Below are positions 210 through 49,857 of a stretch of DNA of 59,921 nucleotides, in pieces; within the stretch, counting starts at the first letter, position 1; each line of letters starts with the position of its first letter. Under the pieces are notes generated by a model, which was not told where the DNA came from, made no database searches, and saw only the letters and a program-made list of their open reading frames with translations. The stretch covers positions 1-59,921 of the forward strand of contig JAEEIG010000055.1 in NCBI GenBank assembly GCA_016281255.1, in the 5' to 3' direction. Both the position numbers and the translations under genes were made by a program. This DNA is from Bacteroidales bacterium (GTDB lineage: Bacteria; Bacteroidota; Bacteroidia; Bacteroidales; WCHB1-69).

Positions 210-235
210 GACTTAAGACGTAAGACTTAAGACTT
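210..235. repeat. heptamer tandem array (GACKTAA) x3.7, left arm of composite element E1
   Basis: Read directly: gacttaa gacgtaa gacttaa gactt. It is the reverse complement of the CTYAAGT units at 317..413. Confidence 0.9.
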
Positions 236-316
236 TTGGGGTCTTACGTCAAGTTCTGATAATTTGTCAAATAATCCCTTTTTTTGTTTTTTTCCTTTGT
301 TTGCAATTCATATAAT

Positions 317-413
317 CTCAAGTCTCAGTCTTAAGTCTCAAGTCTTAAGTCTTAAGTCTTAAGTCTCAAGTCTTAAGTCTCAAGTCTTAAGTCCCAAGTC
401 TCAAGTCTCAAGT
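317..413. repeat. heptamer tandem array (CTYAAGT) x14, right arm of composite element E1
   Basis: Fourteen consecutive units were counted. One is a 6-nt unit, ctcagt. Variation is almost only C/T at position 3. The stop codon of the DUF721 gene (408..410) lies in the last unit. Confidence 0.95.
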
Positions 414-701
414 CCTGAACATGATATCCGTGACCAACGGGCCGAAGTCTACCTGTATTTTCTTGATTATCTGGGATTTGTGTCCAAAGAGCTCGAATTT
501 GAGCGCGGCGTTCTGCACGCGCACATAGAGGATGCCGTTGCGCAGGTCTTCGCACTTCGAGAACTGGGCGCACATCGGCCCGACGTATTCCGGCCACCGT
601 TCGAACAGCATCTGCTTGTCCATCAGATGCTGCTTCCCCGACTGGCTCACGAACCGCCCGATCAGTTCCTTCAAATTCATTTCATGACTATCTCTTTCCA
701 T
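408..701 (-). CDS. DUF721 (DciA-like) small protein
   Basis: 97-aa ORF with ATG at 701..699. An alternative start is M8 at 680. The sequence ...NLKELIGRFV...WPEYVGPMCAQFSKCEDLRNGILYVRVQNAALKFELFGHKSQIIKKI resembles DUF721 family proteins. Assignment is by motif memory only. Confidence 0.7.
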   Translation of the reverse strand: MERDSHEMNLKELIGRFVSQSGKQHLMDKQMLFERWPEYVGPMCAQFSKCEDLRNGILYVRVQNAALKFELFGHKSQIIKKIQVDFGPLVTDIMFRT

Positions 702-721
702 TATCTTATCCTCTTATCCTC
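701..721. repeat. short octamer repeat (TTATCCTC) x2.5 filling the queE-stop to DUF721-start gap
   Basis: Read as ttatc ttatcctc ttatcctc. On the coding (minus) strand this is TGA GAGGATAA GAGGATAA GATA ATG. Confidence 0.6.
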
Positions 722-1348
722 TCACAAAATCTGCATATACTTGTGCGTTTGCAGCGACATGCGCCATTTCGGGTTGTCCAGGATGTACTGCACCAGCCGT
801 CCGATGATGGCGTTGCAACGGTTCCAGTCGGGCTGGAGGAAGAGCAGACAATTCCCGGAGACTTTTTTCGCATTCTCCTCTGCCCAGTTGAAGTCCTCCT
901 CGCAACCGATGACCACCTTGAGTTCGTTGGCTTTGGCGAGCATCTCGGGCTTCGGGGCTGCGCCGTATTTCGGGGAGAGGCAAATCCAGTCCCAGTCGCC
1001 GGAGAGCGGTTCTGAACCGGAAGTTTCCAGGAAACAGCTGAGCCCGCGCTCATGCATCTTCGCGCAGAGGTAGTCCATGTTGTAGAGCATCGGTTCGCCG
1101 CCGGTGACCACCACCGCCCGGGCGGGCACCTTCGCCGCGCGCGCCACGATGTCGTCCACATCCAGTTTCGGATACTTGTCGGCATTCCAAGCCCGCATCT
1201 CGTCGCAGAAGGAGCAGCCCACCTCGCATCCGCCCACGCGCACGAAATAAGCCGCCTTCCCCGTATGATAACCTTCGCCCTGCAACGAATAAAACTCCTC
1301 AACCACAGGGATATACATTCCTTTGTCGCTTGCCATTTTCGATTTCAT
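722..1348 (-). CDS. queE: 7-carboxy-7-deazaguanine synthase QueE (radical SAM)
   Basis: Motifs: LQGEG, then the Cx3Cx2C cluster motif (CEVGCSFCD), VVVTGGEP, and C-terminal QTHKYMQIL. The ORF-track start at 1360 is a TTG codon. The first ATG is at 1348 (MKSKMASDKG...), and ATG 1336 is also possible. Confidence 0.9.
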   Translation of the reverse strand: MKSKMASDKGMYIPVVEEFYSLQGEGYHTGKAAYFVRVGGCEVGCSFCDEMRAWNADKYPKLDVDDIVARAAKVPARAVVVTGGEPMLYNMDYLCAKMHERGLSCFLETSGSEPLSGDWDWICLSPKYGAAPKPEMLAKANELKVVIGCEEDFNWAEENAKKVSGNCLLFLQPDWNRCNAIIGRLVQYILDNPKWRMSLQTHKYMQIL

Positions 1349-1357
1349 TACAACCCG

Positions 1358-1365
1358 CAAAAATA
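1358..1365 (-). promoter_or_regulatory. Bacteroidota -7 promoter box TATTTTTG (TAnnTTTG) for queE
   Basis: The plus strand reads caaaaata, which is TATTTTTG on the minus strand, 10 nt upstream of ATG 1348. Confidence 0.55.
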
Positions 1366-1382
1366 CAAAATTTTACAATAAG

Positions 1383-1472
1383 CCCCTAAACCTGTAAACC
1401 TGTAAACCCGTAAGCCTGTAAACCTGTAAGCCTGTAAACCCGTAAGCCTGTAAACCCGTAAGCCTGTAAGCC
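1383..1472. repeat. octamer tandem array (CCYNTAAR) x11
   Basis: Units read: cccctaaa cctgtaaa cctgtaaa cccgtaag cctgtaaa cctgtaag cctgtaaa cccgtaag cctgtaaa cccgtaag cctgtaag cc. The array occupies most of the 158-bp divergent queE/GNAT intergenic region. Confidence 0.95.
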
Positions 1473-1482
1473 AAAAAAATAG

Positions 1483-5722: not shown

Positions 5723-8108
5723 CCTCTGGCTTTTCATCTTTCTGCTCCTCAGCAGTGTATGCATGTTCTCCTGCAGCTCCGTCCGGCACCTCCCCGATGG
5801 AGAAAGCATGCTGGTCAGAAACAAGGTGAAAGTGGTGGACGCCAAAAGCCCCGACTTCGACAACCTCGCCTCCTACGTGCGCCCCGTCACCAACAAGAAG
5901 TTCATGGATATCTTCCGCATCAAAACGGTATTCTATGACTGGGGAACTCCCAAACTCCTCCCAAACGGGGAATATAAAGACACCAAATTCCGCAAGTTCC
6001 TGCGCGAGAAGATCGGCGAAGCCCCCGTCCTGCTCGACAGCACCGATATCACCAACTCCATCGACCAGCTGAAAATCGTCATGAAACAGCTCGGATACTT
6101 CGATTCGGAGGTCAACTACAACGTCTCCTTCCTGGGGAAAAAGAAGAAAAAGTCCAAGGTGGACTACTTCGTCACCGCCCACGACCCCTACTTCATCAGC
6201 CATGTGGAATACGACATCACCATCCCCGAGTACAAGCGGATCATGGTCATCCACCAGAAAGACAAGCTCCTGCACGACGGGATGCAATACAACGAATCCG
6301 TCATCAACGACGAGCTCACCCGCATCATCAACCTGATCCGCAACGAGGGGTACTACTATGTGGAGAAGTCCATCATCCGGTGCGAGGTGCAGTACGACCC
6401 GCCCGACAGCCTCGGCCACGACCCCAAAACCGTGAGGCTCACCATCATGATGAAGATCCCGCAGAACGAGAACGCCGCCCGCTACCTCTACAAATACCGC
6501 TACCACAACAACTACGTCTGCCCCGACCAGGAGTCGATGGCGACGCAGACCACGGGTTTCGACACCACCTACTACCGTTATACCAGCCGGCGCGACACCT
6601 CCAACTTCTTTTTCATTGAGGAGCTGAAAATCGACGGCAAGGAGCTGAAACCCTACTTCTCCTACAAAACCCTCGCCAACGCCATCTACACCTACAGCGG
6701 GGACGCCTACACCCAGATGGCGAGAACCAGCAGCAGCCGCGGACTGTCGAGCCTCGACAACTTCGACTACGTCAGTATCCTGTTCCGCGAGGACGAGTCG
6801 CTGCTGGACACCGTCAACAAGACCGGCTACCTGGACGTCATCTACCAGATGATCCGCAAAAAGCAGCACAGCGTGGGCGGACAGATAGAGCTGCGCAACG
6901 ACAAATCGGACATCTCGCTCACCTACACCAACCGCAACATCTTCAAAGGCGCCGAACACCTCTCCATCAACCTCTCGGGCGGCTATTACTACTACTCCCT
7001 CAACAACCTCTTCCGCAACAACACCTACTCCTACCCCGAATTCGGTATCACCGTCAAGCTCGACATCCCCAACCGCATCCTCCTCTTCAACCGCCACATC
7101 CGCGACGGAGCCGTCTCCAAAAGCACCGCCTTCAACTTCGGCGTCAACTACTCCGGACTCTACCGCCGGCTGGTTTACAACGCGTCGCTCACCTACCGAT
7201 GGACCCCCTCCTATTACATCTCCCACAGCTTCAGTCCGATAGACGTCAGCACCATCAACAACAGCGACAAGCGCATCACCTACCTGCTGAACTACGACAA
7301 ATATCCGGACTCCTACCAGAACAAGTTCGGCAAATTCATGCTCTTCTCCACCAAATACACCTTCAACTACCTGGTGCCCAAGTTCGTGAATTCCCGCAAG
7401 CACAACATGAACCTGAACATTTCCGGCGAGTCGTCCGGACTGCTCCTGAAGGGGCTGAACGCCCTTTTCGCCCCCAAAGAGCGCTGGGTGATCGGCCAGA
7501 ACGGGCTCGACAGCACGGGATACGACTACACCACCTTCGAAAAGGTGGAGGTGATGTGGAACTACACCTATTCCATCGACAAGGAGAACGCCGTCGCGAT
7601 GCGCGCCGACATCGGGGTCATGATCCCCTTGGACAAGGAGTCCTACGTCCCCTACGAAAAGGGGTTCTACATGGGCACCAGCAACAGCATGCGCGGCTGG
7701 GGCTACCGCGGACTGGGCCCCGGCAGCTACAAACACGGTTCCGACACGCTCTACACCGGCGACATCAAGATGGAGTTCAACCTCGAATACCGCGGCACCA
7801 TCTACCGCTCCATCAAATACGGCATCTTCGCCGACGTGGGCAACATCTGGCTCTCCCGCAAGGAGGCCGACATGCCCGGCGCGGAATTCTCCTTCCAGCG
7901 CTTCTACAAGGAACTCGCCTTCGACGCCGGCGTCGGACTGCGACTCGACTTCGACTTCTTCGTCATCCGCCTCGACTGGGCCATCCCCATCTACGACCCC
8001 ACCCGCGTCTCCGAACAGGGCTATTTCATCAACAAACGGTGGTTCAATCCCCCGCACGCCTTCAGACTGTTCCAAGGGCTGAAGTTGGCCATCGGATATG
8101 CCTTTTAG
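5712..8108 (+). CDS. Omp85 (BamA/TamA) family outer-membrane protein
   Basis: Signal/lipobox-like N-terminus (LLLSSVCMFSCSS). The C-terminal barrel carries Bac_surface_Ag-type motifs (MRGWGYRGLGPGSY, GIFADVGNIW, GVGLRLDFDFFVIRLDWAIPIYDP). It overlaps mreD by 11 nt. Confidence 0.8.
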   Translation: MKRNLWLFIFLLLSSVCMFSCSSVRHLPDGESMLVRNKVKVVDAKSPDFDNLASYVRPVTNKKFMDIFRIKTVFYDWGTPKLLPNGEYKDTKFRKFLREKIGEAPVLLDSTDITNSIDQLKIVMKQLGYFDSEVNYNVSFLGKKKKKSKVDYFVTAHDPYFISHVEYDITIPEYKRIMVIHQKDKLLHDGMQYNESVINDELTRIINLIRNEGYYYVEKSIIRCEVQYDPPDSLGHDPKTVRLTIMMKIPQNENAARYLYKYRYHNNYVCPDQESMATQTTGFDTTYYRYTSRRDTSNFFFIEELKIDGKELKPYFSYKTLANAIYTYSGDAYTQMARTSSSRGLSSLDNFDYVSILFREDESLLDTVNKTGYLDVIYQMIRKKQHSVGGQIELRNDKSDISLTYTNRNIFKGAEHLSINLSGGYYYYSLNNLFRNNTYSYPEFGITVKLDIPNRILLFNRHIRDGAVSKSTAFNFGVNYSGLYRRLVYNASLTYRWTPSYYISHSFSPIDVSTINNSDKRITYLLNYDKYPDSYQNKFGKFMLFSTKYTFNYLVPKFVNSRKHNMNLNISGESSGLLLKGLNALFAPKERWVIGQNGLDSTGYDYTTFEKVEVMWNYTYSIDKENAVAMRADIGVMIPLDKESYVPYEKGFYMGTSNSMRGWGYRGLGPGSYKHGSDTLYTGDIKMEFNLEYRGTIYRSIKYGIFADVGNIWLSRKEADMPGAEFSFQRFYKELAFDAGVGLRLDFDFFVIRLDWAIPIYDPTRVSEQGYFINKRWFNPPHAFRLFQGLKLAIGYAF

Positions 8109-8171
8109 GTTTACAGGTTTACAGGTTTACAGGCTTACAGGTTTACAGGCTTACAGGTTTAGGCGTTTACG
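8108..8171. repeat. octamer tandem array (GGYTTACA) x8, inverse orientation of the CCTGTAAR family
   Basis: Units read: ggtttaca x3, ggcttaca, ggtttaca, ggcttaca, ggtttagg, cgtttacg. The array starts on the last base of the Omp85 stop codon. It also contains the stop (8151..8153) of the minus-strand four-helix-bundle gene. Confidence 0.95.
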
Positions 8172-8528
8172 GAGGGAGGCGCGAAGGCCGATGAGCATAT
8201 TGGAGATAGAAAAGATTTTGGGTTTGACAGTAGCTATATCGGTTTCTTGAATGAAACCCAGGTCAGAAGCAACTTGTAACTGACAATATGTTTCCATTAA
8301 TGAACCGTATGCAATCTCAACAAAATGAATTTGCTCTTTGAGGGATCCTCTGCCAGTGCCTTCTGCAATGTTTGATGGAACTGAAACTATAGCTCGTCGA
8401 ACCTGGTCACCTAAAGCATATTTTTCTTCGTTTGTGAATTTACGAACTAGTTGGTAAATATCACTAACTAGTGTTCTGGACTCTTGCCATACGGCCAATT
8501 TTTCGAATGAGAATTTTGAATCTTTCAT
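8151..8528 (-). CDS. four-helix bundle protein (23S rRNA intervening-sequence protein / S23p family)
   Basis: MKDSKFSFEKLAVWQESRTLVSDIYQLVRKF...ALGDQVRRAIVSVPSNIAEGTGRGS.KE...F..IAYGSL.E is the classic signature of this family. The ATG at 8528 is preferred over the ORF-track start at 8651. The gene is markedly AT-richer than its neighbours. Confidence 0.88.
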   Translation of the reverse strand: MKDSKFSFEKLAVWQESRTLVSDIYQLVRKFTNEEKYALGDQVRRAIVSVPSNIAEGTGRGSLKEQIHFVEIAYGSLMETYCQLQVASDLGFIQETDIATVKPKIFSISNMLIGLRASLRKRLNL

Positions 8529-8581
8529 GATACAATGCTTTAACTTAATAAATTGTTTTTTATCAAATACATAATCAATTG

Positions 8582-8589
8582 CAAAATTA
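8582..8589 (-). promoter_or_regulatory. -7 promoter box TAATTTTG for the four-helix-bundle gene
   Basis: The plus strand reads caaaatta, a perfect TAnnTTTG on the minus strand, 54 nt upstream of ATG 8528. Confidence 0.5.
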
Positions 8590-8650
8590 ACAAGATAATT
8601 TTGAATAATAAAGGAAAACCAACAATTCTTCCAACACCACAATGTTAACA

Positions 8651-8690
8651 ACCCTAAGCCCCTAAACCTGTAAACCAGTAAGCATGTAAA
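8651..8690. repeat. octamer tandem array (CCNNTAAR) x5
   Basis: Units read: accctaag cccctaaa cctgtaaa ccagtaag catgtaaa. It is inverted relative to the array at 8108..8171. Confidence 0.9.
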
Positions 8691-8766
8691 CTATTGAGAA
8701 TCAGCACTGTTAATAACACTGTTTATAAAAATTCCGGCAAGGGTGACAACCTAAAAACGGAATTAT

Positions 8767-8774
8767 TATTTTTG
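8767..8774 (+). promoter_or_regulatory. -7 promoter box TATTTTTG driving the riboswitch-nrdDG transcript
   Basis: Perfect TAnnTTTG match immediately upstream of the riboswitch. Confidence 0.6.
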
Positions 8775-8777
8775 CAC

Positions 8778-8950
8778 GGGTTCAGGTTCTCCTGCAGATT
8801 AAAAGGGAACGCTGTGAGAATCAGCGACTATGCCCGTAGCTGTGAGTTCCGATTTGGCGCCCTCCCCAATATGTCACTGGCCTTTTCCGGGCCGGGAAGG
8901 CGGGGAGAGAGCGGGGACAAGCCAGAAGACCTGCCTGAAACCGCAGATCG
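8778..8950 (+). promoter_or_regulatory. cobalamin (B12) riboswitch
   Basis: Conserved blocks were read directly: AAAAGGGAACGCTGTGAGAATC, GCCCGTAGCTGT, TGTCACTGG...CCGGGAAGGC, and the B12 box AAGCCAGAAGACCTGCC (8919..8935). It lies in the 5' leader of nrdD. Confidence 0.85.
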
Positions 8951-9040
8951 TAGCTTTCGGGATTAAGAGCCGACGAGAAAAGCAGACAAGTGCAATTTCT
9001 CCCTGAGCTGTTTTATTAACCACCAAAACCTTAACCAGTA

Positions 9041-12794: not shown

Positions 12795-14159
12795 TTATTG
12801 AACAGTAACAGATTTTTTTAAGACAGGACATCCATCTTTTGCCAACTTGAAAGTCAAAACTTGACCAGTGGTTAAGGGATAACATTCGCCTTCATAAACG
12901 TTATCTGATACCTGTACCCATGTAAGCAATTGTCCAACCGGGAAGTACAAGCCATTTTCATCATCAACAGTAAGAATGTTATTTACATTATCATTCAAAT
13001 TAAATCCTGCCACTTGAGCTGTTAATTTATTAATATGGGCAGTAGGATCTGCTGTGAAATAAGGACAACCAGCAGCTTTGGCCTTTGCATTTTCGAGTTC
13101 CTCTTTCAAATCACAAACAGTAGTAGTACCACATGCTTTAACATAATTGTTGCCAATGTAGCTTTCCAAGTAGGAATCGAATTTATTCTTAAGCTGTGTG
13201 TAAAGGGCAGGATTCTGATCACGCAGAGTAGCGTAAATTTCCTGAACATCCTGATACTTCAACACATTTTTGATATAATACTCGGCAACGGTCATCATGA
13301 GTTCCTTATGATTCATGACATAAACGATGGCGCTGTCGCGAACAGCATTGAAGATTTCATGGAACTGGGGATTCTCGCGGGCAGCGTTCCAAAGATCCTT
13401 GACCTCTTCCTTCGTGGTGTTCGTGAGATAATATTCGGCAATTTCGTAAGCCAGTTTCTTGTTGGCCTTGATGGAATCGACCAGCATTTCTTTGAGTTTC
13501 TGCTTCACTTCAGGGGTAACGGCGTTGTAAGCGTCCTTGGCGTCCTGAACAGAAGCATTGCCAATGAAGTAGAGAGCCAGATCCTTCACCGTGGCAGGCT
13601 GGGACTTGATGTAGCTGACGATGCTGTCTTTCACCGCTTTGGAGACAGAGGCATTGTTAAACAAAGCCGTGACGATTTGACCGACATCCTCACCTTTGGT
13701 GTTAGGATTGCTGAGATATTCAACAATCTTCGCGGTGGTGATATCCAAAGGATCCTGCACAGATTGCAGAGCCAACGGGACGGGCATCACAGGATTGATC
13801 ACCTCGGAGAGGGTAGTGGTGCCTGCAGCATCCATGAAGGTAGCCTTGATGATGGCATTGTTCCAATCAATGTTGGCAGGGATAGGATTCTTTTCCCCGA
13901 TGATGAAGGAAACCATACCGTTGCGGTTGGTCATAACATCCAAAGTGGTGGAATAGGCAGCACCAGCATAGTCGACTTGAAAAATCTCCACTGTTACTTT
14001 AACAGCTTCGTTCATCACCAAGTTGAAGTCGTGGTTTTGGTCACGAACCACTGCCTGATAATTAAATTTGGCTTGGGGGACTTGTTGATCCGCCGTCTGG
14101 GCCGAAAGGATGCTCACGCTTACGAAAAGCATCACTAAAAAGGTTAAAATCTTTTTCAT
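12795..14159 (-). CDS. secreted hypothetical protein, paralog of 16011..18125
   Basis: Signal peptide MKKILTFLVMLFVSVSILSAQ. N-terminal beta module ...KFNYQAVVRDQNHD...TNRNGMVSFIIGE. Three ~45-aa helical repeats (..KDSIVSYIK....LALYFIGNASVQDA.. / ..AEYYLTNTTKEEVKDLWNAA.. / ..AEYYIKNVLKYQDV..). Cys-bracketed C-terminal module ending ...CPVLKKSVTVQ. Confidence 0.85.
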   Translation of the reverse strand: MKKILTFLVMLFVSVSILSAQTADQQVPQAKFNYQAVVRDQNHDFNLVMNEAVKVTVEIFQVDYAGAAYSTTLDVMTNRNGMVSFIIGEKNPIPANIDWNNAIIKATFMDAAGTTTLSEVINPVMPVPLALQSVQDPLDITTAKIVEYLSNPNTKGEDVGQIVTALFNNASVSKAVKDSIVSYIKSQPATVKDLALYFIGNASVQDAKDAYNAVTPEVKQKLKEMLVDSIKANKKLAYEIAEYYLTNTTKEEVKDLWNAARENPQFHEIFNAVRDSAIVYVMNHKELMMTVAEYYIKNVLKYQDVQEIYATLRDQNPALYTQLKNKFDSYLESYIGNNYVKACGTTTVCDLKEELENAKAKAAGCPYFTADPTAHINKLTAQVAGFNLNDNVNNILTVDDENGLYFPVGQLLTWVQVSDNVYEGECYPLTTGQVLTFKLAKDGCPVLKKSVTVQ

Positions 14160-14198
14160 TGTTTTATTGTTTTTATTATTAATTATTATCGTTGAATA

Positions 14199-16010: not shown

Positions 16011-18125
16011 TTATTGTTGAACAGTGATAGAGAAAGTCTTCTTCAACACACAATTTTCATTTGAGTTGAAGAGAGCAGGGATAGTGCATGTCACTGTATA
16101 GTAACCAGAGGATTCGATAGTGACAGTCTTGCCGGTTTGAGAATAACCAGTGCTTTCCCATTGGTATGTAGGTACTACATCTACACCGTACTGATTGCCA
16201 TATTTCTCGACAATCTGCTCAACTGAAGGCCAGTGAGTGCCGAACTCATTGGAACCAATATAAATACCATTTCTAACGGTAAACGCCGTAGGTCCGGTAA
16301 CAGGAGATTCAGGAGAAATAAAAAGATCGAATTGACGGAGTGTAATGGTTACACCATCTGAGTATTGGCCATAAAACTTGTCATTGCCACATTCAACATA
16401 AGGACGGACTAAGATAGTTTTACCACAGAAGTTCATCTTGATGGTATCAGAAACCGTCAATCCATCATTACTTAAAACCGCAGGAGAATTTGTGTTATGC
16501 AATGGTGTCCATTCTCCATCTCCCATTTTATATTCGAAACCGCAGTTCGCGCTCGTATTTTGATAGTAGTTGTTTGTCATCGTAGCCGTCAGAACAACAC
16601 CATGGTAGTTAATCAAATCACCGGCTGCATCAGAAGTGTGTGTGAAAGAAGCGATATCGGGACATTCACATGGTCCTTGACATTCGATTGCTGTAGCAGG
16701 TCCAAAAGTTTCGGTATCCATACATTCGGCTGTCATCTTAGGTCTCACACTAATATTGCGATTTTTATATTCCTGAGGTAATGTTGCTGTTATTTCATCC
16801 CCATTTACCGTCGCTTGAATAAGGACTGCGGAATAATTGCTATTCGGGAAAGTTAACTCATACCATGCTTGAATGTTATTAGCATTGCCGTTATTAGTAA
16901 AGGGTGTTTTTAATTCATCGTTAGTAGCAGTGTAGGTGGTTGCGCCGATCGTAGGACAAACCACAGTGCCATAATCCTTGAATTGTTCAATTTCGTTCAT
17001 CAAGGCACAGAGTTCAGTAATATCACATTGGACCTTTTGGTATTGGTTTGCAGCCATGTATTCGTCAATAAGATCATTCAGGATACCCTTGGCGGTGTCA
17101 TACGCGGCGGGATTGTTCGTCTTGGTGTAATTCTGGAGCGTGAAGACATCTTCCGCGGTCAGGTGTCTGACAACGTATTTAGCGGTTTTCGTGGCCAGTT
17201 CAGGATTCCTTTTGATATACTCGTTAACGCTGTCCACGATCATTTTGGCAATCTCATACACTTGCGCATTGTTCATAGCGGCGTTCCAGAAGCCGGAGAC
17301 ATCCTCCTTGGTGGTCTGGCCGATGTAATATTTCACGAGGTTATAGGCTTCCGTTCTGTGGTTTTTGATGTATTTCACGACGGTGTCCTTCACAAACTCC
17401 ACCACGTCCTGGCTGACAGTATCGGCGGCGTTTTCAACATCTTCGGGAGTGATCAGTCCGATGAAATAGAGGGCAAGTTCCTTGGTTCTGCCGGGGTTGC
17501 GTTTAATGGCATTGGCCACAGAGTCGCGCAGGGCGTTCATGAAGGGTACGTTACCGGTGATGGCTTCATCGACGGCAGCCACATCGTTGGTCTTGGCATT
17601 TTCGATGTACTTCACAATTCTCGGGGTCGTGATGTTTCTCTTCATGAAAGTTTTGTAAGCGAAAGGCACGGGAAGGATCTCCATGGTGTCCATGATTCCG
17701 TATTCGGGGATGGCCAGGACGACCTTGGCGTCTTGCCATTCGATCTCGTTGAACCATTTGAGATTCACCGTTGCGTTAACCGTATTAGGGATTTGGTAGC
17801 CGTCCGGCAGCGCCACCGGTTCGTAGTCGCTCAGTGTCAGGGAAAGCATACCGTTCATGTTGGTGGTAACCTGCGGGGCAATCATGCCGTTTCCGGTACC
17901 ATGTTCGGTAAAGGCCCACACCTTGGCGACATTGCCAGTAGCTTCGACAACAGCCACATAGACATTCATGGACTGGTTGTACACCAAGTCATTGGGTGCA
18001 AATGCGCCCACAGAATCCGTTGTCTGGTTTCGAACTATCATCTGATAGCTGAGGCTTGGCGCTTGGGCCAACAACGTGCTCACTGTCACCAGGAGCATCG
18101 TGAAAAGGGTTAAAATCTTTTTCAT
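16011..18125 (-). CDS. secreted hypothetical protein, paralog of 12795..14159
   Basis: Signal peptide MKKILTLFTMLLVTVSTLLAQ (the first 18 nt are identical to the 14159 gene). N-terminal module LSYQMIVRNQ. Three helical repeats (LALYFIGLITPEDV / VKYYIGQTTKEDVSGFWNAA / AKYVVRHLTAEDV). C-terminal Cys-rich beta modules (VVCPTIG...) ending ...CVLKKTFSITVQQ. Confidence 0.88.
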   Translation of the reverse strand: MKKILTLFTMLLVTVSTLLAQAPSLSYQMIVRNQTTDSVGAFAPNDLVYNQSMNVYVAVVEATGNVAKVWAFTEHGTGNGMIAPQVTTNMNGMLSLTLSDYEPVALPDGYQIPNTVNATVNLKWFNEIEWQDAKVVLAIPEYGIMDTMEILPVPFAYKTFMKRNITTPRIVKYIENAKTNDVAAVDEAITGNVPFMNALRDSVANAIKRNPGRTKELALYFIGLITPEDVENAADTVSQDVVEFVKDTVVKYIKNHRTEAYNLVKYYIGQTTKEDVSGFWNAAMNNAQVYEIAKMIVDSVNEYIKRNPELATKTAKYVVRHLTAEDVFTLQNYTKTNNPAAYDTAKGILNDLIDEYMAANQYQKVQCDITELCALMNEIEQFKDYGTVVCPTIGATTYTATNDELKTPFTNNGNANNIQAWYELTFPNSNYSAVLIQATVNGDEITATLPQEYKNRNISVRPKMTAECMDTETFGPATAIECQGPCECPDIASFTHTSDAAGDLINYHGVVLTATMTNNYYQNTSANCGFEYKMGDGEWTPLHNTNSPAVLSNDGLTVSDTIKMNFCGKTILVRPYVECGNDKFYGQYSDGVTITLRQFDLFISPESPVTGPTAFTVRNGIYIGSNEFGTHWPSVEQIVEKYGNQYGVDVVPTYQWESTGYSQTGKTVTIESSGYYTVTCTIPALFNSNENCVLKKTFSITVQQ

Positions 18126-18349
18126 TGTACTTATTTTTTTGTTATTACTATTATTTCGTCGTTAATTTGATTTGCTATTATATATATACTATATTAACTC
18201 AACTGCGATTCTTGTCCTCCGGCATCCAAATAGCACAAAACGCACGGAAAAATGCAAACCCCGAAACGGGCTTGTCCATGCGTAACCAACTGCTATTTAG
18301 ACACTTACTAAATATCATTCTACACTATTTTACACTATAATTCAAGTCG

Positions 18350-18375: not shown

Positions 18376-18418
18376 ATCAACGGTGTTGATTTTTTTGATT
18401 TTTTTCTGATTTTTTTCG
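18376..18418 (+). repeat. hairpin ATCAAC-GGT-GTTGAT followed by three TGATTTTTT(TC) decamer repeats
   Basis: Read directly. It looks like a plus-strand intrinsic terminator, but there is no plus-strand gene upstream. Confidence 0.6.
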
Positions 18419-18421
18419 GTC

Positions 18422-18512: not shown

Positions 18513-18549
18513 TAATATAAAAAGATTGGCCGACAGGCCATCCTTTTTA

Positions 18550-18589
18550 GATGATAAGATGATGAGATAATGAGATGATGAGATGATGA
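18550..18589. repeat. octamer tandem array (GATRATRA) x5
   Basis: Units read: gatgataa gatgatga gataatga gatgatga gatgatga. Two mutually inverted small hairpins flank it: ATTGGCC-GACA-GGCCAT (18525..18541) and ATGGCC-TTAC-GGCCAAT (18589..18605). Confidence 0.9.
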
Positions 18590-18610
18590 TGGCCTTACGG
18601 CCAATTGTCT

Positions 18611-18644: not shown

Positions 18645-18751
18645 CCAAGGAAGGGGAATTGGGCTTCGACCGAAGCAATCCACCACAACCGAAACATTCT
18701 TTCCCCAACCGAATCACTCCGTGCCAACACGAAGTAACCAACAGCCGAAGG

Positions 18752-21267: not shown

Positions 21268-21300
21268 GATTTAAGACGTAAGACTTGAGACTTTAGACTC
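21268..21300. repeat. heptamer array (GAYKTRA) x4.7, left arm of composite element E2
   Basis: Units read: gatttaa gacgtaa gacttga gacttta gactc. The 16-mer TTAAGACGTAAGACTT is identical to that in the 210..235 array. Confidence 0.9.
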
Positions 21301-21381
21301 TTGGGGTTTTTCGTTAGTTTGTATACTTATTATCAAATGTTATCTTGATATTCTTATTTCTTTCTTTTTTTACCTACTTCT

Positions 21382-21437
21382 CCTAAGTCTCACGTCTCAA
21401 GTCCCAAGTCCCAAGTCTCAAGTCTCAAGTCTCAAGT
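21382..21437. repeat. heptamer array (CYYAMGT) x8, right arm of composite element E2
   Basis: Units read: cctaagt ctcacgt ctcaagt cccaagt cccaagt ctcaagt ctcaagt ctcaagt. Confidence 0.95.
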
Positions 21438-21479
21438 CTAATTCAACGTGCAAAAGTGCATTTTTCCGAAAAACAGGGC

Positions 21480-24800: not shown

Positions 24801-26118
24801 TGTCAACAACATCGGCTCGCTGCACCTGCGCGTGCGCTCCATGGTGGAGAGCCTCAAGTTCAGCCGTCAGCAGAAGGTGGACAAGCCGTTCGTCACCACT
24901 CCGGTTTTCACGGAAGCCGACCGCCGCAGGACGATACTCGCGCCCTATTTCGCCGGCGGTTACTCGGAATTTGTCCCGACAGCCTTCAAAATGGCCGGCT
25001 ACAACATGATCAACCTGCCGCTCGGCGACAAAGAGTGCGTGGAACTCGGTCTGCAGTACGCCAACAACGAGGTCTGCTACCCCGCCACCGTCGTGGTCGG
25101 CAGCCTGCTGAAGGCGTTGCAAAGCGGGAAATACCCCCTGGACGACACAGCAGTCATCATCACCCAAACGGGCGGACAGTGTCGCGCCACCAACTACATC
25201 ATGCTGATCAAGAAGGCACTGGTGGCGGCCGGCTTCGAAAACGTGCCGGTGTTGTCTTTGGCCTTCGGCAGCACATTGGCAAACGAACAGCCCGGATTCC
25301 ACTTCAACGCCAAGGAGATGGCGTTGCCGGCCGTGTGCGGTATGCTCTACGCCGACTGCCTGTCGCGTATCTACTACGCTTCCCGCCCGCGCGAAAAGGA
25401 GCCCGGAGTGGCCAAAGCGTTACACCAGCAATACATCGACAAGGCACTGCCGCTCATCGAAAACCGCGACTATCGCGGACTCAAACGCATGATCAAGGAG
25501 GCCGCCGCCGCGTTCACCGAAAACATCGACACCTCGAAAAAACTCCCGCGCGTGGGTGTGGTGGGCGAAATCTACATCAAATACAACGCCTTCGGACACC
25601 TGAACGTCCTCGACTGGCTCGCCGACCAGGGCGTGGAGGTCGTCGCTCCCTCCATCTACAACTTCTTCGCCAACAACTTCGTGAACCGGCACATCAACAA
25701 GGAAAACCACCTCAAACCCGTCGATTTACCGCTCTTCGTGACGGACGTGATCTACAAAATCCTCTTCCGTTACGCCAAGACCTACGACGAGGCCTGCAAG
25801 GACTTCCCGTTCTACCGTCCGTTCGCCGATATGTTCCACGAGGCGAAATTAGCCTCCCGCGTCATCAGCATGGCGGCCAACTTCGGCGAAGGTTGGCTCA
25901 TCCCCGCCGAGATGTCCTCCCTGGCGGAAGAGGGCATCCAGAACATCATCAGCCTCCAACCGTTCGCCTGCATCTCCAACCACATCATCGCCAAAGGCAT
26001 CGAAAAGAAAATGCGCAAACTCTATCCCAAACTGAACATCCTCTTCCTCGACTTCGATGCCGGCACCTCCGAAGCCAACGTCTTCAACCGCCTGCACTTC
26101 CTCATCGAAAACTCCTAA
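21862..26118 (+). CDS. acyl-CoA dehydratase activase-related fusion protein (2x BcrAD/BadFG ATPase plus C-terminal DUF2229/HgdB-like region), 1418 aa
   Basis: Two ATPase starts (IGIDIGSTTVKVVVL and IGVDSGSTTTKLVVL). CSSGCGSFIE and CPGCPNHC Cys motifs. The long C-terminal region is typical of this family. ATG 21862 (MNNNILKIG) is preferred over the ORF-track start at 21616. Confidence 0.9.
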   Translation: MNNNILKIGIDIGSTTVKVVVLNEENTILHADYRRHNMNVRETVLTMLGGDASSVALFSDAGSGGSCRVAITGSVGMGYAELWGFPFVQEVISAATLVKESFPQTRTFIDIGGEDSKMIFFDEGRMPDIRMNGNCAGGTGAFIDQTASLLNVETSELNTLAEQAQRVYPIASRCGVFSKTDIQNLLARNVSKADVALSVFHAVCLQVLGTLSRGVDVQAPVFFCGGPFAFLPKLREVFLGNLHLTEGDCIAVPDARVVPAHGAALMAATACSEPIPLPHFLETIRNQAIGDEARLLANRLAPLFSDRQHFEKWKAEKQNFFVDRVEWDNLKSNEVFIGVDSGSTTTKLVVLDAEGRLLFSDYSSNNGNSFEAFHNALKRFAQACKEHDFEPNILNSAVTGYGENLLKTAFGLHHGVVETMAHYLGARRVSPEVSFILDIGGQDMKAIFVENQAIRRLEINEACSSGCGSFIETFARMMGYTVSDFASIACEAKHPYDLGTRCTVFMNSKVKQAMREGTSPEDISAGFAYSVIKNCLFKVLKLRKTEELGDHLVVQGGTFKNLAVVRALELLTGKDVRFADIPELMGAYGCALFAREQAVTKVLTLEDLLSIRQFENKQQICPGCPNHCTVLEYHFSNGQIFYSGNNCEKIYTNHTEVREKGFNQHHRRLKMLFRRPMLNDAGGKPVIGIPRALGMFELYPFWHALFRACGIRTVMSGPSTVKQYEKGVHTVMSENICFPAKLMHGHIYDLARQKVDRIFYPFIVMEAPADSQARNSYNCPIVAGYSEVVRNAIDTEERFGIPTDAPIISMNNEKFLREGCRKYLKTLGIDKKTADMAIQKAIVAQQEYLEELHTEALEIVEKARKENRMVVVLAGRPYHSDPLIQHKISDCIADMGIDVVTEFIAGDEDVSVYRELMAVTQWTYPNRIFKAAHYVANSPDNVHFMMVTSFGCGPDAFIIDETHDILDRKGKSFTLLKVDDVNNIGSLHLRVRSMVESLKFSRQQKVDKPFVTTPVFTEADRRRTILAPYFAGGYSEFVPTAFKMAGYNMINLPLGDKECVELGLQYANNEVCYPATVVVGSLLKALQSGKYPLDDTAVIITQTGGQCRATNYIMLIKKALVAAGFENVPVLSLAFGSTLANEQPGFHFNAKEMALPAVCGMLYADCLSRIYYASRPREKEPGVAKALHQQYIDKALPLIENRDYRGLKRMIKEAAAAFTENIDTSKKLPRVGVVGEIYIKYNAFGHLNVLDWLADQGVEVVAPSIYNFFANNFVNRHINKENHLKPVDLPLFVTDVIYKILFRYAKTYDEACKDFPFYRPFADMFHEAKLASRVISMAANFGEGWLIPAEMSSLAEEGIQNIISLQPFACISNHIIAKGIEKKMRKLYPKLNILFLDFDAGTSEANVFNRLHFLIENS

Positions 26119-26137
26119 GCGTGTAAGCGTGTAAGCC
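26119..26137. repeat. octamer repeat (GCGTGTAA) x2.4 immediately after the stop codon
   Basis: gcgtgtaa gcgtgtaa gcc begins on the base after TAA 26116..26118. Confidence 0.8.
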
Positions 26138-26176
26138 AAAAAAAAACGGGTACCGACCTCATGCCGATACCCGTTT
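26138..26176. terminator. bidirectional terminator between convergent genes
   Basis: A9 run, then stem AAACGGGTA ... TACCCGTTT. It is strong on the minus strand (T9 follows the stem) and weaker on the plus strand. Confidence 0.75.
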
Positions 26177-26180: not shown

Positions 26181-26204
26181 ATCCATTATCCTTTATCCAC
26201 TATC
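26181..26204. repeat. heptamer repeat (ATCCNNT) x3.5 overlapping the stop of the 950-aa gene
   Basis: Units read: atccatt atccttt atccact atc. The stop codon at 26200..26202 lies inside it. Confidence 0.7.
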
Positions 26205-43714: not shown

Positions 43715-43739
43715 TCGAAAAATATCGCGTTATCCCGCG

Positions 43740-43769
43740 CAGGGGCGTATCGCATACGCCCCTGTTTTT
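43740..43769. terminator. R2-family palindrome acting as a terminator between convergent folD and the addB-like gene
   Basis: CAGGGGCGTAT-CGC-ATACGCCCCTG forms an 11-bp stem followed by TTTTTA on the plus strand. Confidence 0.8.
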
Positions 43770-46722: not shown

Positions 46723-46754
46723 GTGGAACTATTATTATTCTATGAACTTCAAAA

Positions 46755-46778
46755 CCTGTAAGCCTCTAAGCCCCTATA
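46755..46778. repeat. octamer repeat (CCNNTAWR) x3 at the ung stop
   Basis: Units read: cctgtaag cctctaag cccctata. The ung stop (46774..46776) lies inside it. Confidence 0.75.
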
Positions 46779-47448
46779 ACTGCCAATCAATCGGGCTTTT
46801 CCCCATTGACACTAAAATCTCGTTCGTCTTGGAGAAGTGACGGCAGCCGAAGAAGCCTCGGGAGGCGGATAGTGGCGACGGATGAGGCGCGGTGAGGACG
46901 TGATGCTTGCTCGTGTCGATAAGCCGTTGTTTCTCGATGGCATAGTTGCCCCAAAGCAGAAAGACGATTCCTTCGCGCTGCTCCGACAGCCGCTGGATGG
47001 CGCAGTCGGTGAAGGTCTCCCAGCCGTGACGCTGGTGCGAACCCGCCTGATGCGCACGCACCGTGAGAGTCGCGTTGAGCAACAGCACCCCCTGGTCCGC
47101 CCACGATTGCAAGTTGCCACTCACCGGAATCCGGAACCCTACATCCGCACTCAACTCCTTGAAGATGTTCTGCAGCGACTTGGGAATCGGCACACCGTCC
47201 TGCACCGAAAAGCAGAGACCGTGCGCCTGCCCTTCGCCATGGTAGGGGTCCTGCCCGATAATCACCACCTTCACTTGGTCGAACGGCGTGGAATTGAATG
47301 CATTGAAGATCTTCGGTCCGGGCGGAAACACCTGATAGTGCTTCTTCTCCTCCACCAGAAACGCTTTCAACTCCGCAAAATACGGTGCTTGGAACTGATC
47401 CCAGAGCACGCGTTTCCAGGATTCCTCAATAATCGGATTAACGGTCAT
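46774..47448 (-). CDS. ung: uracil-DNA glycosylase
   Basis: ...[22 protein letters not shown]...LLLNATLTV...HPSPLSA are family-1 UDG motifs. Confidence 0.95.
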
Positions 47449-47490
47449 AAACCTGAAACTTGAAACTTGAAACCTGAAACCTGAAACTTA
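47449..47490. repeat. heptamer tandem array (AAACYTG) x6 filling the whole purH-stop to ung-start gap
   Basis: Units read: aaacctg aaacttg aaacttg aaacctg aaacctg aaactta. The first base follows the ung ATG (47448). The last unit contains the purH stop (47488..47490). Confidence 0.95.
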
Positions 47491-49023
47491 GTGCTTAAAA
47501 TGCCGCACTCCGGTGAACACCATCGAAATCCCAAACTCGTTGCAGGCCTTGATGGAGTCTTCGTCGCGGACACTGCCGCCAGGTTGGATGATGGCGGTGA
47601 CACCGTACTCTTTCGCCATTTTCACCACATCGTCGAAGGGGAAGAAGGCGTCACTGGCGAGGCAGAGATTCGACGTAAGTCCCTTTTCCTTAGCCTCTTC
47701 CAAGGCGATATGCGCGGCGCCCACACGATTCATCTGTCCGGCGCCGATGCCGGCGATGCGACCATCGCAGGCCACCGTGATGGCGTTGGAACGCACATGT
47801 TTGCAAATCGTCATCGCAAGCTTCAGGTTCTCCATCTCTTCGGCAGTTGGAGCCTTTTCGGTCACCACCTTGATCTCGTAATCCTCAAAGCGTTTGCGGT
47901 CGAGCGACTGGCAGAGCAGACCACCGGCCACGCTCACGAACATCTTCTCGTCGGCATTGGATTTGTCGGTGCTGAAGGTCATCAGCCGGATGTTCTTCTT
48001 GGTGGAAAGGTGGTCGAAGGCCTCCTGTGTGAACGACGGCGCGAGGATGATTTCGAGGAAGACGGGCTTCATCGCCTCGGCGGTCGGCAAGTCGATTTCG
48101 CGGTTCGAAGCCACGATGCCGCCGAAGATGGAGACGCTGTCGGCCTCGTACGCGCGGGTCCATGCCTCCAAGGCACTCTCGCCGATGCCCACGCCGCAGG
48201 GGTTCTTGTGCTTCACGGCCACCATCGTCGGGCGGTCGAACTCGCGCAAGATCTGCAAAGCGGCGTCCGCATCTTGTATGTTGTTGTAAGACAGCTCTTT
48301 ACCATGCAATTGCTCGGCCCATGCCATCGAAAAGCCCTGCTTCTTGCCGGCATAGAAGGCAGCTTCCTGATGCGGGTTCTCTCCGTAACGCAGCGACTGC
48401 TTCTTGGTAAATGTAAGCGTCAGATTCTCAGGTTCTTTCTCTCCTACCTTCTCAGTCAGATAGGTAGAAATGTAAGTGTCGTAAGCGGCAGTGTGACGGA
48501 AAACCTTGGCGGCCAAACGACGGCGGGTCTCCAACGTGGTGTCGCCATGCGCTTTGAGTTCTTCGAGAACGGCGGCGTAGTCGGCATTATCGACCACCAC
48601 GGTCACGAAAGCGTGGTTTTTGGCCGCGCTGCGCAGCATGGAAGGACCGCCGATGTCGATGTTCTCGATGGCATCCTCAAACGTGGTTCCCTCTTTCTCA
48701 ATGGTTTGCTTGAAAGGATAGAGGTTCACCACCACCATGTCGATAGGGGAAATATGGTTGGTTTCCATCTCCTTCACATGCTCGGGATTGGTGCGCACGG
48801 AGAGCAGACCGCCATGCACCTTCGGGTGCAGGGTTTTCACACGGCCGTCCATGATTTCCGGAAAGCCGGTCACATCGCTGATACCGATAGTCTTCACGCC
48901 CGCGGCCTCTAACGCCTTGCGGGTGCCACCCGTGGAGATGATTTCAAAACCCAATTTGGTAAGTTCCTGAGCAAAAGGCACTACGCCTTCCTTGTTGCTC
49001 ACACTGATAATCGCTCTTTTCAT
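47488..49023 (-). CDS. purH: bifunctional AICAR transformylase / IMP cyclohydrolase
   Basis: MKRAIISVSNKEGVVPFAQELTKLGFEIISTGGT...GRVKTLHPKVHGG... is typical PurH. ATG 49023 is preferred over the ORF-track start at 49113. Confidence 0.95.
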   Translation of the reverse strand: MKRAIISVSNKEGVVPFAQELTKLGFEIISTGGTRKALEAAGVKTIGISDVTGFPEIMDGRVKTLHPKVHGGLLSVRTNPEHVKEMETNHISPIDMVVVNLYPFKQTIEKEGTTFEDAIENIDIGGPSMLRSAAKNHAFVTVVVDNADYAAVLEELKAHGDTTLETRRRLAAKVFRHTAAYDTYISTYLTEKVGEKEPENLTLTFTKKQSLRYGENPHQEAAFYAGKKQGFSMAWAEQLHGKELSYNNIQDADAALQILREFDRPTMVAVKHKNPCGVGIGESALEAWTRAYEADSVSIFGGIVASNREIDLPTAEAMKPVFLEIILAPSFTQEAFDHLSTKKNIRLMTFSTDKSNADEKMFVSVAGGLLCQSLDRKRFEDYEIKVVTEKAPTAEEMENLKLAMTICKHVRSNAITVACDGRIAGIGAGQMNRVGAAHIALEEAKEKGLTSNLCLASDAFFPFDDVVKMAKEYGVTAIIQPGGSVRDEDSIKACNEFGISMVFTGVRHFKH

Positions 49024-49082
49024 ATTCTTAAATTTTATTGACTTGCATTCAAACAAAAGCGCAAAAATACAAAAATCCGTTT

Positions 49083-49110
49083 TCCCTAAGCCCCTATGCC
49101 CGTAAGCCTT
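49083..49110. repeat. octamer repeat (YCCNTAWG) x3.5 next to the recO stop
   Basis: Units read: tccctaag cccctatg cccgtaag cctt. The last base is the first base of the recO stop triplet (49110..49112). Confidence 0.75.
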
Positions 49111-49820
49111 CAATGCAGAACCGTTGACAAAATCTCCAGCGAATCAATCTTCCGTATCTGCTCGTTATGTATCTGGAAATAGGCGACCAGACTCTTCAAA
49201 AGGGCGGTGCGGACGCCGCGCGAGACCTGCACCGGCTCCTCCTGATTCAACAATTGGTGCAGATAGCGGCTCTGCTGCTCGGACAGAATGCCCGCGCCTT
49301 CCACAAAGAAAGGCTGGAAAAGGCACTCCTGCAAGGAGAAGAAGGGATTCTCCCCGGAAAAATTGTCTTCGGGATAGTAACCCATCACCATGCTGAGTCG
49401 CAGCAAAAACCGCAACGGCAGCTCCGCCATATTATCCTTGGCGTCGTGCACCTTGGCGATTTCCTCCTGCAAAAAGCGGAACAGCACCTCATCCTCCCCC
49501 GCATCCATCAGCAGCTTATACAATATCTCATTGTAAAACAGCAGGATGGAACTTTTTACGGGATCATAATAGAGGGTCGAAGGGCGCCGCGGCGCGATGT
49601 CTTTCAAATATTTCAGGGAGCTCCTGCTGTGGTCGTCATAGGAGATGTCCATCTCCGCCAAAGGGGAGAAGTAGGAGGCGGCGAAACGATTGTTTTTCCG
49701 GAAGGCATTTTTGATGATAAACGACTGGTTCCCTTGCTGTTGTGTGAATATCTTCACAATCAGCGAGGTGTCGCCGTATTTCGTGGCGTGCATCACTATC
49801 CCCGGAGTCGAAACGATCAT
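49110..49820 (-). CDS. recO: DNA repair protein RecO
   Basis: MIVSTPGIVMHATKYGDTSLIVKIFTQQQGNQSFIIKNA is a typical RecO OB-fold N-terminus. 236 aa. Confidence 0.85.
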   Translation of the reverse strand: MIVSTPGIVMHATKYGDTSLIVKIFTQQQGNQSFIIKNAFRKNNRFAASYFSPLAEMDISYDDHSRSSLKYLKDIAPRRPSTLYYDPVKSSILLFYNEILYKLLMDAGEDEVLFRFLQEEIAKVHDAKDNMAELPLRFLLRLSMVMGYYPEDNFSGENPFFSLQECLFQPFFVEGAGILSEQQSRYLHQLLNQEEPVQVSRGVRTALLKSLVAYFQIHNEQIRKIDSLEILSTVLH

Positions 49821-49822
49821 AT

Positions 49823-49857
49823 CCTTTTGCCTTTTGCCTATTCCCTGTTGCCTTTAA
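49823..49857. repeat. heptamer repeat (CCTNTTS) x5 filling the porZ-like stop to recO start gap
   Basis: Units read: ccttttg ccttttg cctattc cctgttg cctttaa. The stop at 49854..49856 lies in the last unit, and the array starts 2 nt after the recO ATG. Confidence 0.8.

Follow-up and report, generated by a model that had tools for sequence, protein, structure and literature searches.

Tandem arrays of 7- and 8-nt units between the genes of an uncultured Bacteroidales bacterium, and their association with genes for intervening-sequence proteins

Contig JAEEIG010000055.1 of the Bacteroidales bacterium assembly GCA_016281255.1, whose 59,921 nt were analysed as a whole and are called the window below, carries 15 short tandem arrays of 7- or 8-nt units and raises the question of what such arrays are and why they lie where they do. 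A preliminary description of the window had listed these arrays, placed all of them between genes, often in contact with stop codons, and compared them with the short tandemly repeated repetitive (STRR) heptamers of heterocystous cyanobacteria. In our judgement, the arrays are probably slippage-driven, mostly neutral STRR-type long simple sequence repeats (LSSRs) with units of 7 and 8 bp, of the same kind as the GGGAATC repeats of Xanthomonas. Gain and loss of whole units, appearance, loss and exchange of array families, decay to length-stable remnants, exclusion from coding DNA and random orientation were all observed, and the arrays occupy the spots at which additional DNA costs least: after stop codons, in intercistronic gaps, between stop codon and terminator, and at the upstream edge of core promoters.

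Location, composition and strain variation of the arrays

Arrays were detected with Tandem Repeats Finder (TRF) and a simple period detector (score ≥11), and were placed on a gene map made from Pfam matches, gene calls on conspecific contigs and a check for open reading frames (ORFs) without internal stops. By this map 7.4% of the window is intergenic, and the arrays occupy 671 nt, ~15% of the intergenic DNA. The period detector found six arrays of period 7 and five of period 8, all 11 of them intergenic, and no array of periods 4-6 or 9-12 in the window at the same score; shuffled intergenic segments gave a mean of 0.007 arrays vs the 11 observed. Four further arrays (8651-8690, 46755-46778, 49083-49110 and 26181-26204) are short or degenerate and not significant singly, and belong to the same unit families. 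TRF and direct view of the sequence agree on every array of the preliminary description, and its statement that all of them are intergenic holds for the 11 strong and the 4 degenerate arrays alike. The host is an uncultured gut or rumen member of the Bacteroidales with Bacteroidota-type TAnnTTTG -7 boxes and domains of the type IX secretion system (T9SS). Among the matches listed, its closest named proteins come from metagenome-assembled genomes (MAGs) named "Bacteroidales bacterium", and the best identity of PurH to species-representative genomes is 72%. The same species is also represented by GCA_978016855.1 and by contigs of 188-213 kb.

Nine stop codons are in contact with an array, namely those of dciA (408), omp85 (8106), a gene for a four-helix-bundle intervening-sequence protein (IVP; 8151), a CoA-activase gene (26116), a T9SS protein gene (26200), ung (46774), purH (47488), recO (49110) and porZ (49854), and three stop-to-ATG gaps (radical SAM gene to dciA, purH to ung, porZ to recO) are filled by an array from end to end. 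Both features had been noted before, and the gene map bears them out. The units of an array had also been said to differ almost exclusively by transitions, which is the case for the six long arrays (37 transitions vs 9 transversions, most of these transversions being located at the borders of an array) but not for the short or degenerate ones (16 vs 29). As TRF also gives periods of 14 and 16, the long arrays are alternations of two unit variants.

Position and orientation were counted in non-redundant metagenome loci, in each case among the matches listed. Of 235 arrays there, 214 fall outside every ORF of at least 100 aa. Of 54 arrays in co-directional junctions, 22 start between -10 and +3 nt from the upstream stop codon, and the median distance is ~10 nt to the stop codon vs ~82 nt to the following ATG. 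At such junctions the G-rich strand coincides with the coding strand in 17 cases and with the opposite strand in 23. With orientation thus random, a simple RNA-level role is unlikely, and an RNA-level function, which a strand bias would have indicated, was rejected. The closing of reading frames, presented earlier as a property of the units, is likewise better read as a by-product, since ORFs run on until an array is met.

The distance from the end of an array to a downstream TAnnTTTG -7 box is 5-19 nt in several cases, and the stretch between them consists of an A-tract alone. Canonical hairpin terminators are distinct from the arrays, for example at 26144-26176 and 43739-43765, and in the region 26116-26204 each array lies between one convergent stop codon and the shared terminator. 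Because ordinary hairpin terminators exist separately, the arrays are not terminators, and as intrinsic terminators they were also rejected for having no GC-rich hairpin followed by a T-run. Other candidates were set aside as well: a spacer between -33 and -7 elements or an on/off switch (positions unfit), CRISPR arrays (units contiguous, without spacers) and G-quadruplexes (the sole such pattern, at 8889, lies inside a cobalamin riboswitch and outside the arrays). The array positions fit sites that tolerate insertion.

Copy number was compared with ~20 contigs from other samples (ENA, NCBI, Logan), ~99% identical to the window and obtained through exact-protein look-ups; look-ups for dciA, feoAB and namZ gave no matches. 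The contigs span 1-13.8 kb and 39-60 kb of the window, the arrays at 18549, 21268-21439 and 26116-26204 being outside the comparison, and the lengths given here are those of compared intervals with one array each. Four arrays vary in steps of whole units of 7 or 8 nt. The 8107 array (interval 8080-8200) measures 105, 114, 121 or 129 nt, the 47449 array (47425-47510) 72, 79 or 86 nt in 7-nt steps, with natural alleles of 3.6, 4.6 and 5.6 units before ung, the 49823 array (49800-49875) 62 vs 76 nt, with strain L096 two units shorter, and the 701 array 53 vs 61 nt, with one unit fewer in strains L100-L102. This is the variable-number tandem repeat (VNTR) behaviour that the preliminary description had proposed to look for. 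The long arm at 316-414 has ~14 units in the window vs ~6 in L100-L102. Whole arrays are exchanged too: in L099 the 701 array is swapped for an ATCCATT-type 7-mer array, and in L099-L102 the 94-nt array 1379-1474 is missing and a CCTTTTG-family 7-mer array stands in its stead, ending at the same place ~10 nt upstream of the -7 box of a GNAT gene. The degenerate arrays at 8651, 46755 and 49083 are constant in length; that at 46751-46782 shows base substitutions only, and that at 49087-49110 is invariant in 8 strains. The arrays go through a cycle of birth, expansion, decay and loss as expected for slippage-prone repeats.

Between species, orthologous sites were compared in the omp85-IVP-nrdD region. 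A related species at 85-88% identity (L152) keeps both arrays that flank the IVP gene, and a second one, at 80-93% identity, lacks an array behind omp85 and carries arrays in the iorA-iorB junction, which is array-free in the window. The synteny around purH is already gone at 88-98% protein identity.

The window has 18 arrays per 100 kb. Among the matches listed, the density is ~2 per 100 kb both for named Bacteroidota loci and for relatives whose PurH is 88-98% identical, and 0.4 per 100 kb for PurH loci of other phyla (1.2 Mb in all). In JGI metagenomes at least 119 loci contain three CCYGTAAR units, and many of these loci hold several 7-/8-mer arrays of the window families. GGYTTACR, GGGGCTTA/GGAGCTTA, GGTTTAA/GGTTTAG, GTTTCAG, AAGTCTC and AGATGATT are the recurring families among the matches listed, an array of AGATGATT being found also in metagenome locus L116. 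Given ~1,170 possible canonical heptamers, we infer that the recurrence of AAGTCTC and AAACYTG among ~77 secondary heptamer arrays lies far above chance. Families differ by small edits, AAACCTG being TAAACCTG minus one base, and single tracts change from 8-mer to 7-mer in metagenome loci among the matches listed. Some of the metagenome matches, contigs of high GC content with a single array, are probably unrelated background. Viral contigs matching two array patterns numbered 6 and 1, which are small numbers.

Three further loci were observed to be rich in arrays. In an 8-kb co-directional gene string (JGI contig Ga0310690_10007969, L139, 760-7990) 7-/8-mer arrays fill nearly every junction, one of them measuring 182 nt, and two IVP genes have different arm units. 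A Bacteroidales MAG from horse feces (Horse_feces118, L024) and a Paludibacteraceae MAG (L047) are rich in 7-, 8- and 10-nt arrays with units that differ from those of the window (TATCTCA, TCTTATAA, AGTTAGA, TTGAACAATT). As these two MAGs are array-rich with other units, array richness recurs within the order with lineage-specific units.

Inverted pairs and genes for intervening-sequence proteins

The 15 arrays comprise three inverted pairs and nine solo arrays; sound as its list of arrays proved, the preliminary description had missed both this pairing and the four-helix-bundle gene that one pair encloses. The pairs at 209-414 (tatA) and 21268-21439 (feoAB) have one architecture and the same orientation to the downstream gene, with ~80 nt of AT-rich spacer separating a long TCYCAAG arm from a short one. 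The arm 209-236 is an inverted repeat with 340-366 at 96% complementarity. If transcribed whole, the tatA pair has a predicted RNA fold of -67 kcal/mol (z -8.0), and the feoAB pair one with z -6.0. A dispersed MITE (miniature inverted-repeat transposable element) was considered for this composite element and rejected, as no further copies were present in any locus examined.

The third pair encloses the IVP gene (125 aa; PF05635, E = 2e-35; TIGR02436 "four helix bundle protein", E = 5e-34), whose product has weak similarity to Avd of diversity-generating retroelements (DGRs). This cassette (8107-8694) lies between omp85 and the riboswitch of nrdD, its arms 8117-8153 and 8655-8691 are 84% complementary, and the predicted minimum-free-energy fold closes with a ~45-bp stem of both arrays (z -5.1). 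In an intervening sequence (IVS) of 23S rRNA, an ORF for S23p lies within a long terminal stem that is cut by RNase III, the stem of Coxiella having ~28 bp (PMC4990558). The window cassette shares with such IVSs the PF05635/TIGR02436 ORF, the terminal inverted repeats, with a predicted stem longer than that of Coxiella, and the sporadic distribution known from selfish elements. In contrast to them it lies between two protein genes, and its arms are copy-variable tandem arrays. As far as the predicted fold goes, the cassette has the architecture of an rRNA IVS. The window contains no rRNA, and the cassette is not inserted in 23S helix 25 or helix 45. A role of the IVP as a component of a defence system was rejected, there being no PADLOC match. 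In several strains gene callers give a 48-aa product at the IVP locus, or none.

For IVP genes elsewhere, a related set was drawn from array-bearing metagenome contigs and two IVP-first look-ups. Among the matches listed, all nine distinct IVP genes in related contigs lie between inverted arrays, with inverted-repeat scores of 36-76, while 541 other genes of the same loci have a median score of 16 and a 95th percentile of 22, six of them (~1%) reaching 40. The arm unit varies by cassette (7-mers, 8-mers, a ~14-nt unit, a 22-mer), and both arms always match.

A tblastn search with the window IVP in the PLSDB plasmids gave 32 records, most of them from the STRR taxa Nostoc, Calothrix, Trichormus, Anabaena and Scytonema and others from Riemerella, Gemmatirosa and Azospirillum. 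Of the 14 IVP genes examined in this set, 13 have 7-8-nt arrays on both sides within ~100 nt, 11 as inverted and 2 as direct pairs, with arm units that include GGTGACA, GGGAGTA, GGGTGTA, CAGGAGT, GGGAACA and GGGAAAA, and GGTTTAA in Riemerella. On plasmid AZO_p2 of Azospirillum lipoferum 4B (L265, 13698-15445) a 23S rRNA gene (RF02541, model 572-1977) is interrupted by an IVS with an unannotated IVP ORF and stem arms of GGACAGA/GGACGGA heptamer repeats; because this IVP gene lies within a 23S rRNA gene, a genuine IVS has heptamer-array arms. On four cyanobacterial plasmids (L255, L261, L263 and L256) IVP genes lie between cas6 and cas4 (Anabaena sp. 90 and Pseudanabaena galeata), between cas10 and cmr3 (Picosynechococcus) and between the beta and alpha genes of ribonucleotide reductase (RNR; Nostoc edaphicum). 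In 50 kb of a plasmid of Nostoc punctiforme used as control, 2 of 42 genes have such flanks, namely the IVP gene and the one directly beside it, and the other arrays are mostly inverted pairs with short spacers. An identical IVP protein (P0171) was found in four contexts. Arrays as the ends of a mobile unit carrying it were rejected, because the shared DNA reaches ~1 kb past the arrays. The association of arrays and IVP genes is seen on 23 cassettes in four phyla. No description of array bracketing of TIGR02436 genes was found in the literature searched.

Catalogue of arrays and neighbouring elements

The arrays and the IVP gene of the window are listed in Table 1.

Table 1. Tandem arrays of the window, the enclosed IVP gene, and their surroundings
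Feature	Position	Strand	Surroundings	Basis
GACKTAA x ~4	209..236		short arm of composite inverted-array element between dciA stop and tatA start	TRF
TCTYAAG x ~14	316..414		long arm of the same composite element as 209..236; includes dciA stop (408-410)	TRF
TCTTATCC x 2.4	704..722		occupies gap from radical-SAM stop to dciA ATG	TRF, period detector
TAARCCYG x 12	1379..1474		between divergent promoters; -7 boxes 1365 (-), 1483 (+)	TRF
AGGYTTAC x 8	8107..8170		from omp85 stop; includes IVP stop; one arm of IVP hairpin	TRF
four-helix-bundle IVP gene, PF05635 / TIGR02436	8151..8528	-	enclosed by two inverted arrays	Pfam, NCBIfam
degenerate TAARCCYG x ~5	8647..8694		second arm of IVP hairpin	inverted repeat
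AGATGATR x 5	18549..18591		loop of 17-bp hairpin inside GC-rich repeat element	TRF, period detector
GACKTAA x ~4.5	21268..21302		short arm of second composite element, upstream of feoAB	TRF
TCYCAAG x 8	21382..21439		long arm of second composite element (feoAB)	TRF, period detector
TAAGCGTG x 2.6	26116..26139		from CoA-activase stop, before bidirectional hairpin terminator	TRF, period detector
ATCCATT x 3.4	26181..26204		overlaps stop of convergent T9SS gene, far side of terminator 26144-26176	TRF
degenerate TAARCCYS x ~4	46751..46782		overlaps ung stop codon	TRF
AAACYTG x 5.6	47449..47490		occupies entire gap from purH stop to ung ATG	TRF, period detector
degenerate TAAGCCCC x 3	49087..49110		between recO stop and purH promoter (-7 box 49069)	TRF
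CCTTTTG-family x ~5	49823..49857		occupies gap from porZ stop to recO ATG	TRF, period detector

Other elements were observed in the same intergenic DNA. The array at 18549 lies within a GC-rich palindromic repeat element (18413-18660) in the 626-nt gap between the gene hyp704 and feoAB, which contains a ~35-nt motif, ATACCCCTACCCCGGCCTATCGGCCACCCCTTCCC, twice (~18413 and ~18612). Two metagenome loci, L218 and L227, each hold two copies of a 54-nt piece of it (18471-18522) with 94-96% identity, and the element probably belongs to a family resembling repetitive extragenic palindromes (REPs) or MITEs. Between a Wzy_C gene and a gene of 151 aa, a 51-bp tandem repeat is present in 5.2 copies (59009-59270), each unit with a small GTCCC...GGGAC hairpin and a T-run; other strains have 1-2 copies, and strain L098 has an 8-mer AACCRTYA array instead.

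The gene nrdD for the anaerobic ribonucleotide reductase is preceded by a cobalamin riboswitch (RF00174, 8767-8952, + strand, 114.7 bits), so that the ORF 8694-8966 is spurious. This riboswitch is the only match in the window at the Rfam gathering threshold, and none was found at any array. Two neighbouring genes whose products are secreted or lipoproteins (454 and 704 aa, both beginning with MKKILT) are 75% identical over 84 nt at their 5' ends and in their upstream regions (14098-14181 and 18064-18147), and starts in a similar context are found at 15930, 29042 and 40816 as well. These regions are paralogous signal-peptide and promoter regions.

Known repeat classes and the origin of the arrays

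LSSRs, as far as Mrazek, Guo and Shah (2007) are reported in PMC4679880 and PMC4692102, have units of 5-11 nt, predominantly heptamers, and a sporadic, lineage-specific occurrence, and slippage has been proposed for them. The arrays described here share with this reported picture the head-to-tail short units, the heptamers, the intergenic place of units that are no multiple of three and the sporadic spread, and all LSSR features that we looked for were found: tandem units of 5-11 nt, exclusion from coding DNA, whole-unit steps and lineage-specific abundance. They differ in that octamers are as common as heptamers, that related families coexist and interconvert, and that the host, an uncultured member of the Bacteroidales, stands outside the LSSR-rich taxa described in those reports. 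The heptamers GGGAATC of Xanthomonas and GGGGA(C/T)T of Nostoc are intergenic, frequently form inverted pairs, often have a stop codon within 50 bp or overlap one, show no strand preference and vary in length (PMC4692102). In all these respects, including length variation between close relatives, the window arrays resemble the STRR, Nostoc and Xanthomonas heptamers; their unit sequences are different, they come in 7 and 8 nt, and they lack G-tracts. The term "S23" is absent from that account, and published accounts are silent on flanking of a four-helix-bundle gene.

TAACTGA repeats occur in Beggiatoaceae, some Cyanobacteria and five Bacteroidetes, and a translational role has been suggested for them, as they are mostly oriented to a nearby start (PMC4679880). 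In common with the window arrays they are intergenic heptamers bearing stops in all frames, sometimes overlap an upstream stop codon, and are found in Bacteroidetes partly as very long arrays together with other heptamers; in contrast to them the window arrays are randomly oriented. Neither TAACTGA nor GGGAATC units are present in the window, and none of its arrays has four or more G-tracts of at least 3 G. The STRR heptamers of Mazel and colleagues (1990) are reportedly CCCCAGT, TTGGTCA and CAACAGT. Neither strand of the window has any of these three units in tandem, and the host, with its TAnnTTTG promoters and T9SS domains, is not a heterocystous cyanobacterium. Because the units are absent and G-tracts are lacking, the window arrays are not members of the STRR, Xanthomonas or Nostoc families, and the analogy with STRRs drawn at the outset stands in kind (inverted pairs, stop bias, length variation) but not as membership. 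The suggestion that such arrays were not known in Bacteroidota was too strong. Five Bacteroidetes with heptamer arrays, including Paludibacter, have been described (PMC4679880), and the claim of taxonomic novelty is therefore softened: heptamer arrays were known in a few Bacteroidetes, and the present families were not found for Bacteroidales in the literature searched.

If the arrays are neutral long repeats, their length would change by replication slippage, with loops of 7-8 nt presumably exceeding the reach of MutS-type mismatch repair, and most of them would be selectively near-neutral filler. Existing arrays may give rise to new ones through recombination or local copying, which would explain the shared families, common boundary motifs such as TAAGCCCCTAAACC and GTAAGCC-A7, and the 7-mer derivatives of 8-mers. 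The inverted pairs would form long stems around their cargo, the ~80-nt AT-rich spacer or the IVP gene, and for this subset either arm-to-arm homogenisation or selection for the stem is likely. Several points weigh against this reading. Slippage alone leaves unexplained why a small set of unit families comes back in contigs of varied GC and gene content, why the periods are restricted to 7 and 8, and why the arms match within cassettes whose units differ, which amounts to concerted evolution. Arrays of the same contig are found on the same strand somewhat more often than expected (74 vs 63, among the matches listed). The array-bracketed segments of dciA (415-722) and IVP (8171-8646) diverge by 1.7-5.5% in most strains vs 0.3-0.6% for their neighbours, a 4-10x higher strain divergence that hints at recombination activity and could stem from recombination tracts bounded by arrays or from relaxed constraint. 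The arrays may also have a functional role.

A different account regards the arrays as arms or footprints of IVS-like selfish cassettes, i.e. tandem-array hairpins whose loop may carry an S23p/IVP gene. Movement, decay or recombination of these elements would spread the arrays, the IVP would possibly act on them, and slippage would tune their length. The IVP gene between inverted arrays and the two cargo-less inverted pairs of the window speak for it, as do the nine of nine related cassettes vs ~1% of other genes among the matches listed, the 13 of 14 flanked plasmid genes with 11 inverted pairs and one real 23S rRNA IVS, and the Nostoc punctiforme control with 2 of 42 genes flanked and short-spacer inverted pairs for most other arrays. 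So do the IVP genes wedged into operons (cas6/cas4 twice, cas10/cmr3, RNR beta/alpha), the concentration of plasmid matches in STRR-bearing Nostocales and the fact that IVS mobility is already suspected (PMC4990558). We nevertheless think it rather unlikely as the origin of the arrays, since nine of the 15 are solo, several have direct orientation in successive junctions of one gene string, and a single IVP gene faces all 15 in the window. Furthermore, neither a transposase or integrase nor a target-site duplication was seen, the arrays flanking two IVP genes are direct, a solo array at an empty site was not found, and the shared DNA ~1 kb beyond the arrays, in one boundary test, means that the arrays are not established as element ends. 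It is possible, and is put forward here tentatively, that STRR-type arrays and S23p/TIGR02436 (Avd-like) genes together are one widespread selfish hairpin element. The rRNA IVSs would then be the special case inserted in rRNA. Intergenic arrays, in Bacteroidales, Nostocales and other groups, would represent arms of the element, derivatives of it without cargo, and its remnants, and the encoded protein or a processing of the RNase III type may have produced them or may maintain them.

The remaining explanations are less likely. Cis-acting sites, bound by a DNA-binding or nucleoid protein or by an RNA-binding translational regulator of the flanking genes, would agree with the limited set of unit families conserved across contigs, with the several arrays just upstream of start codons or -7 boxes, and with the translational regulator proposed for TAACTGA repeats (PMC4679880). 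We consider them improbable, given the random orientation to the coding strand, flanking genes that are unrelated housekeeping genes, copy numbers from 2.4 to 14, the lack of an Rfam match, and the presence, absence or family swap of arrays between strains of ~99% identity in which nothing else changed. Contingency SSRs, the phase-variation switches of Haemophilus and Neisseria, are built of 1-7-nt units and are located within ORFs or between the promoter hexamers of surface or virulence genes. The window arrays share with them slippage-prone repeats and copy-number polymorphism between strains, and some are located in promoter regions. They differ in lying after stops and in intercistronic gaps of housekeeping genes, and a switch function is very improbable: no array is within an ORF or between -33 and -7 elements, the polymorphic ones follow stop codons, fill intercistronic gaps or sit upstream of the whole core promoter, an added unit recreates the same local sequence beside stop and start, and the neighbours serve core metabolism or DNA repair (purH, ung, recO, tatA) and are not surface antigens. 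Finally, short-read contigs often break at arrays, two of them (L105 and L106) within the 8107 array, as would be the case for assembly or sequencing artefacts. This explanation, which the preliminary description had named as a way to refute its claim, has a negligible probability and is already refuted, because ~20 independent assemblies carry the arrays at the same sites with clean unique flanks, and a related species has them as well.

As slippage-driven long repeats, the arrays add a well-documented Bacteroidales case to a little-understood class, to which the STRR heptamers and those of Xanthomonas and Beggiatoa belong. As natural VNTR markers they lend themselves to the typing of strains in rumen and gut metagenomes, and in practice they cause breaks in short-read contigs. 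The larger potential value lies in the bracketing of 23S rRNA IVS protein genes across four phyla, including a real rRNA IVS. If this association holds genome-wide, it would connect the rRNA intervening sequences with STRR-like repeats and with the abundant TIGR02436 proteins, and would offer for each of the three a testable hypothesis, be it stem formation and processing or an interaction between protein and array.

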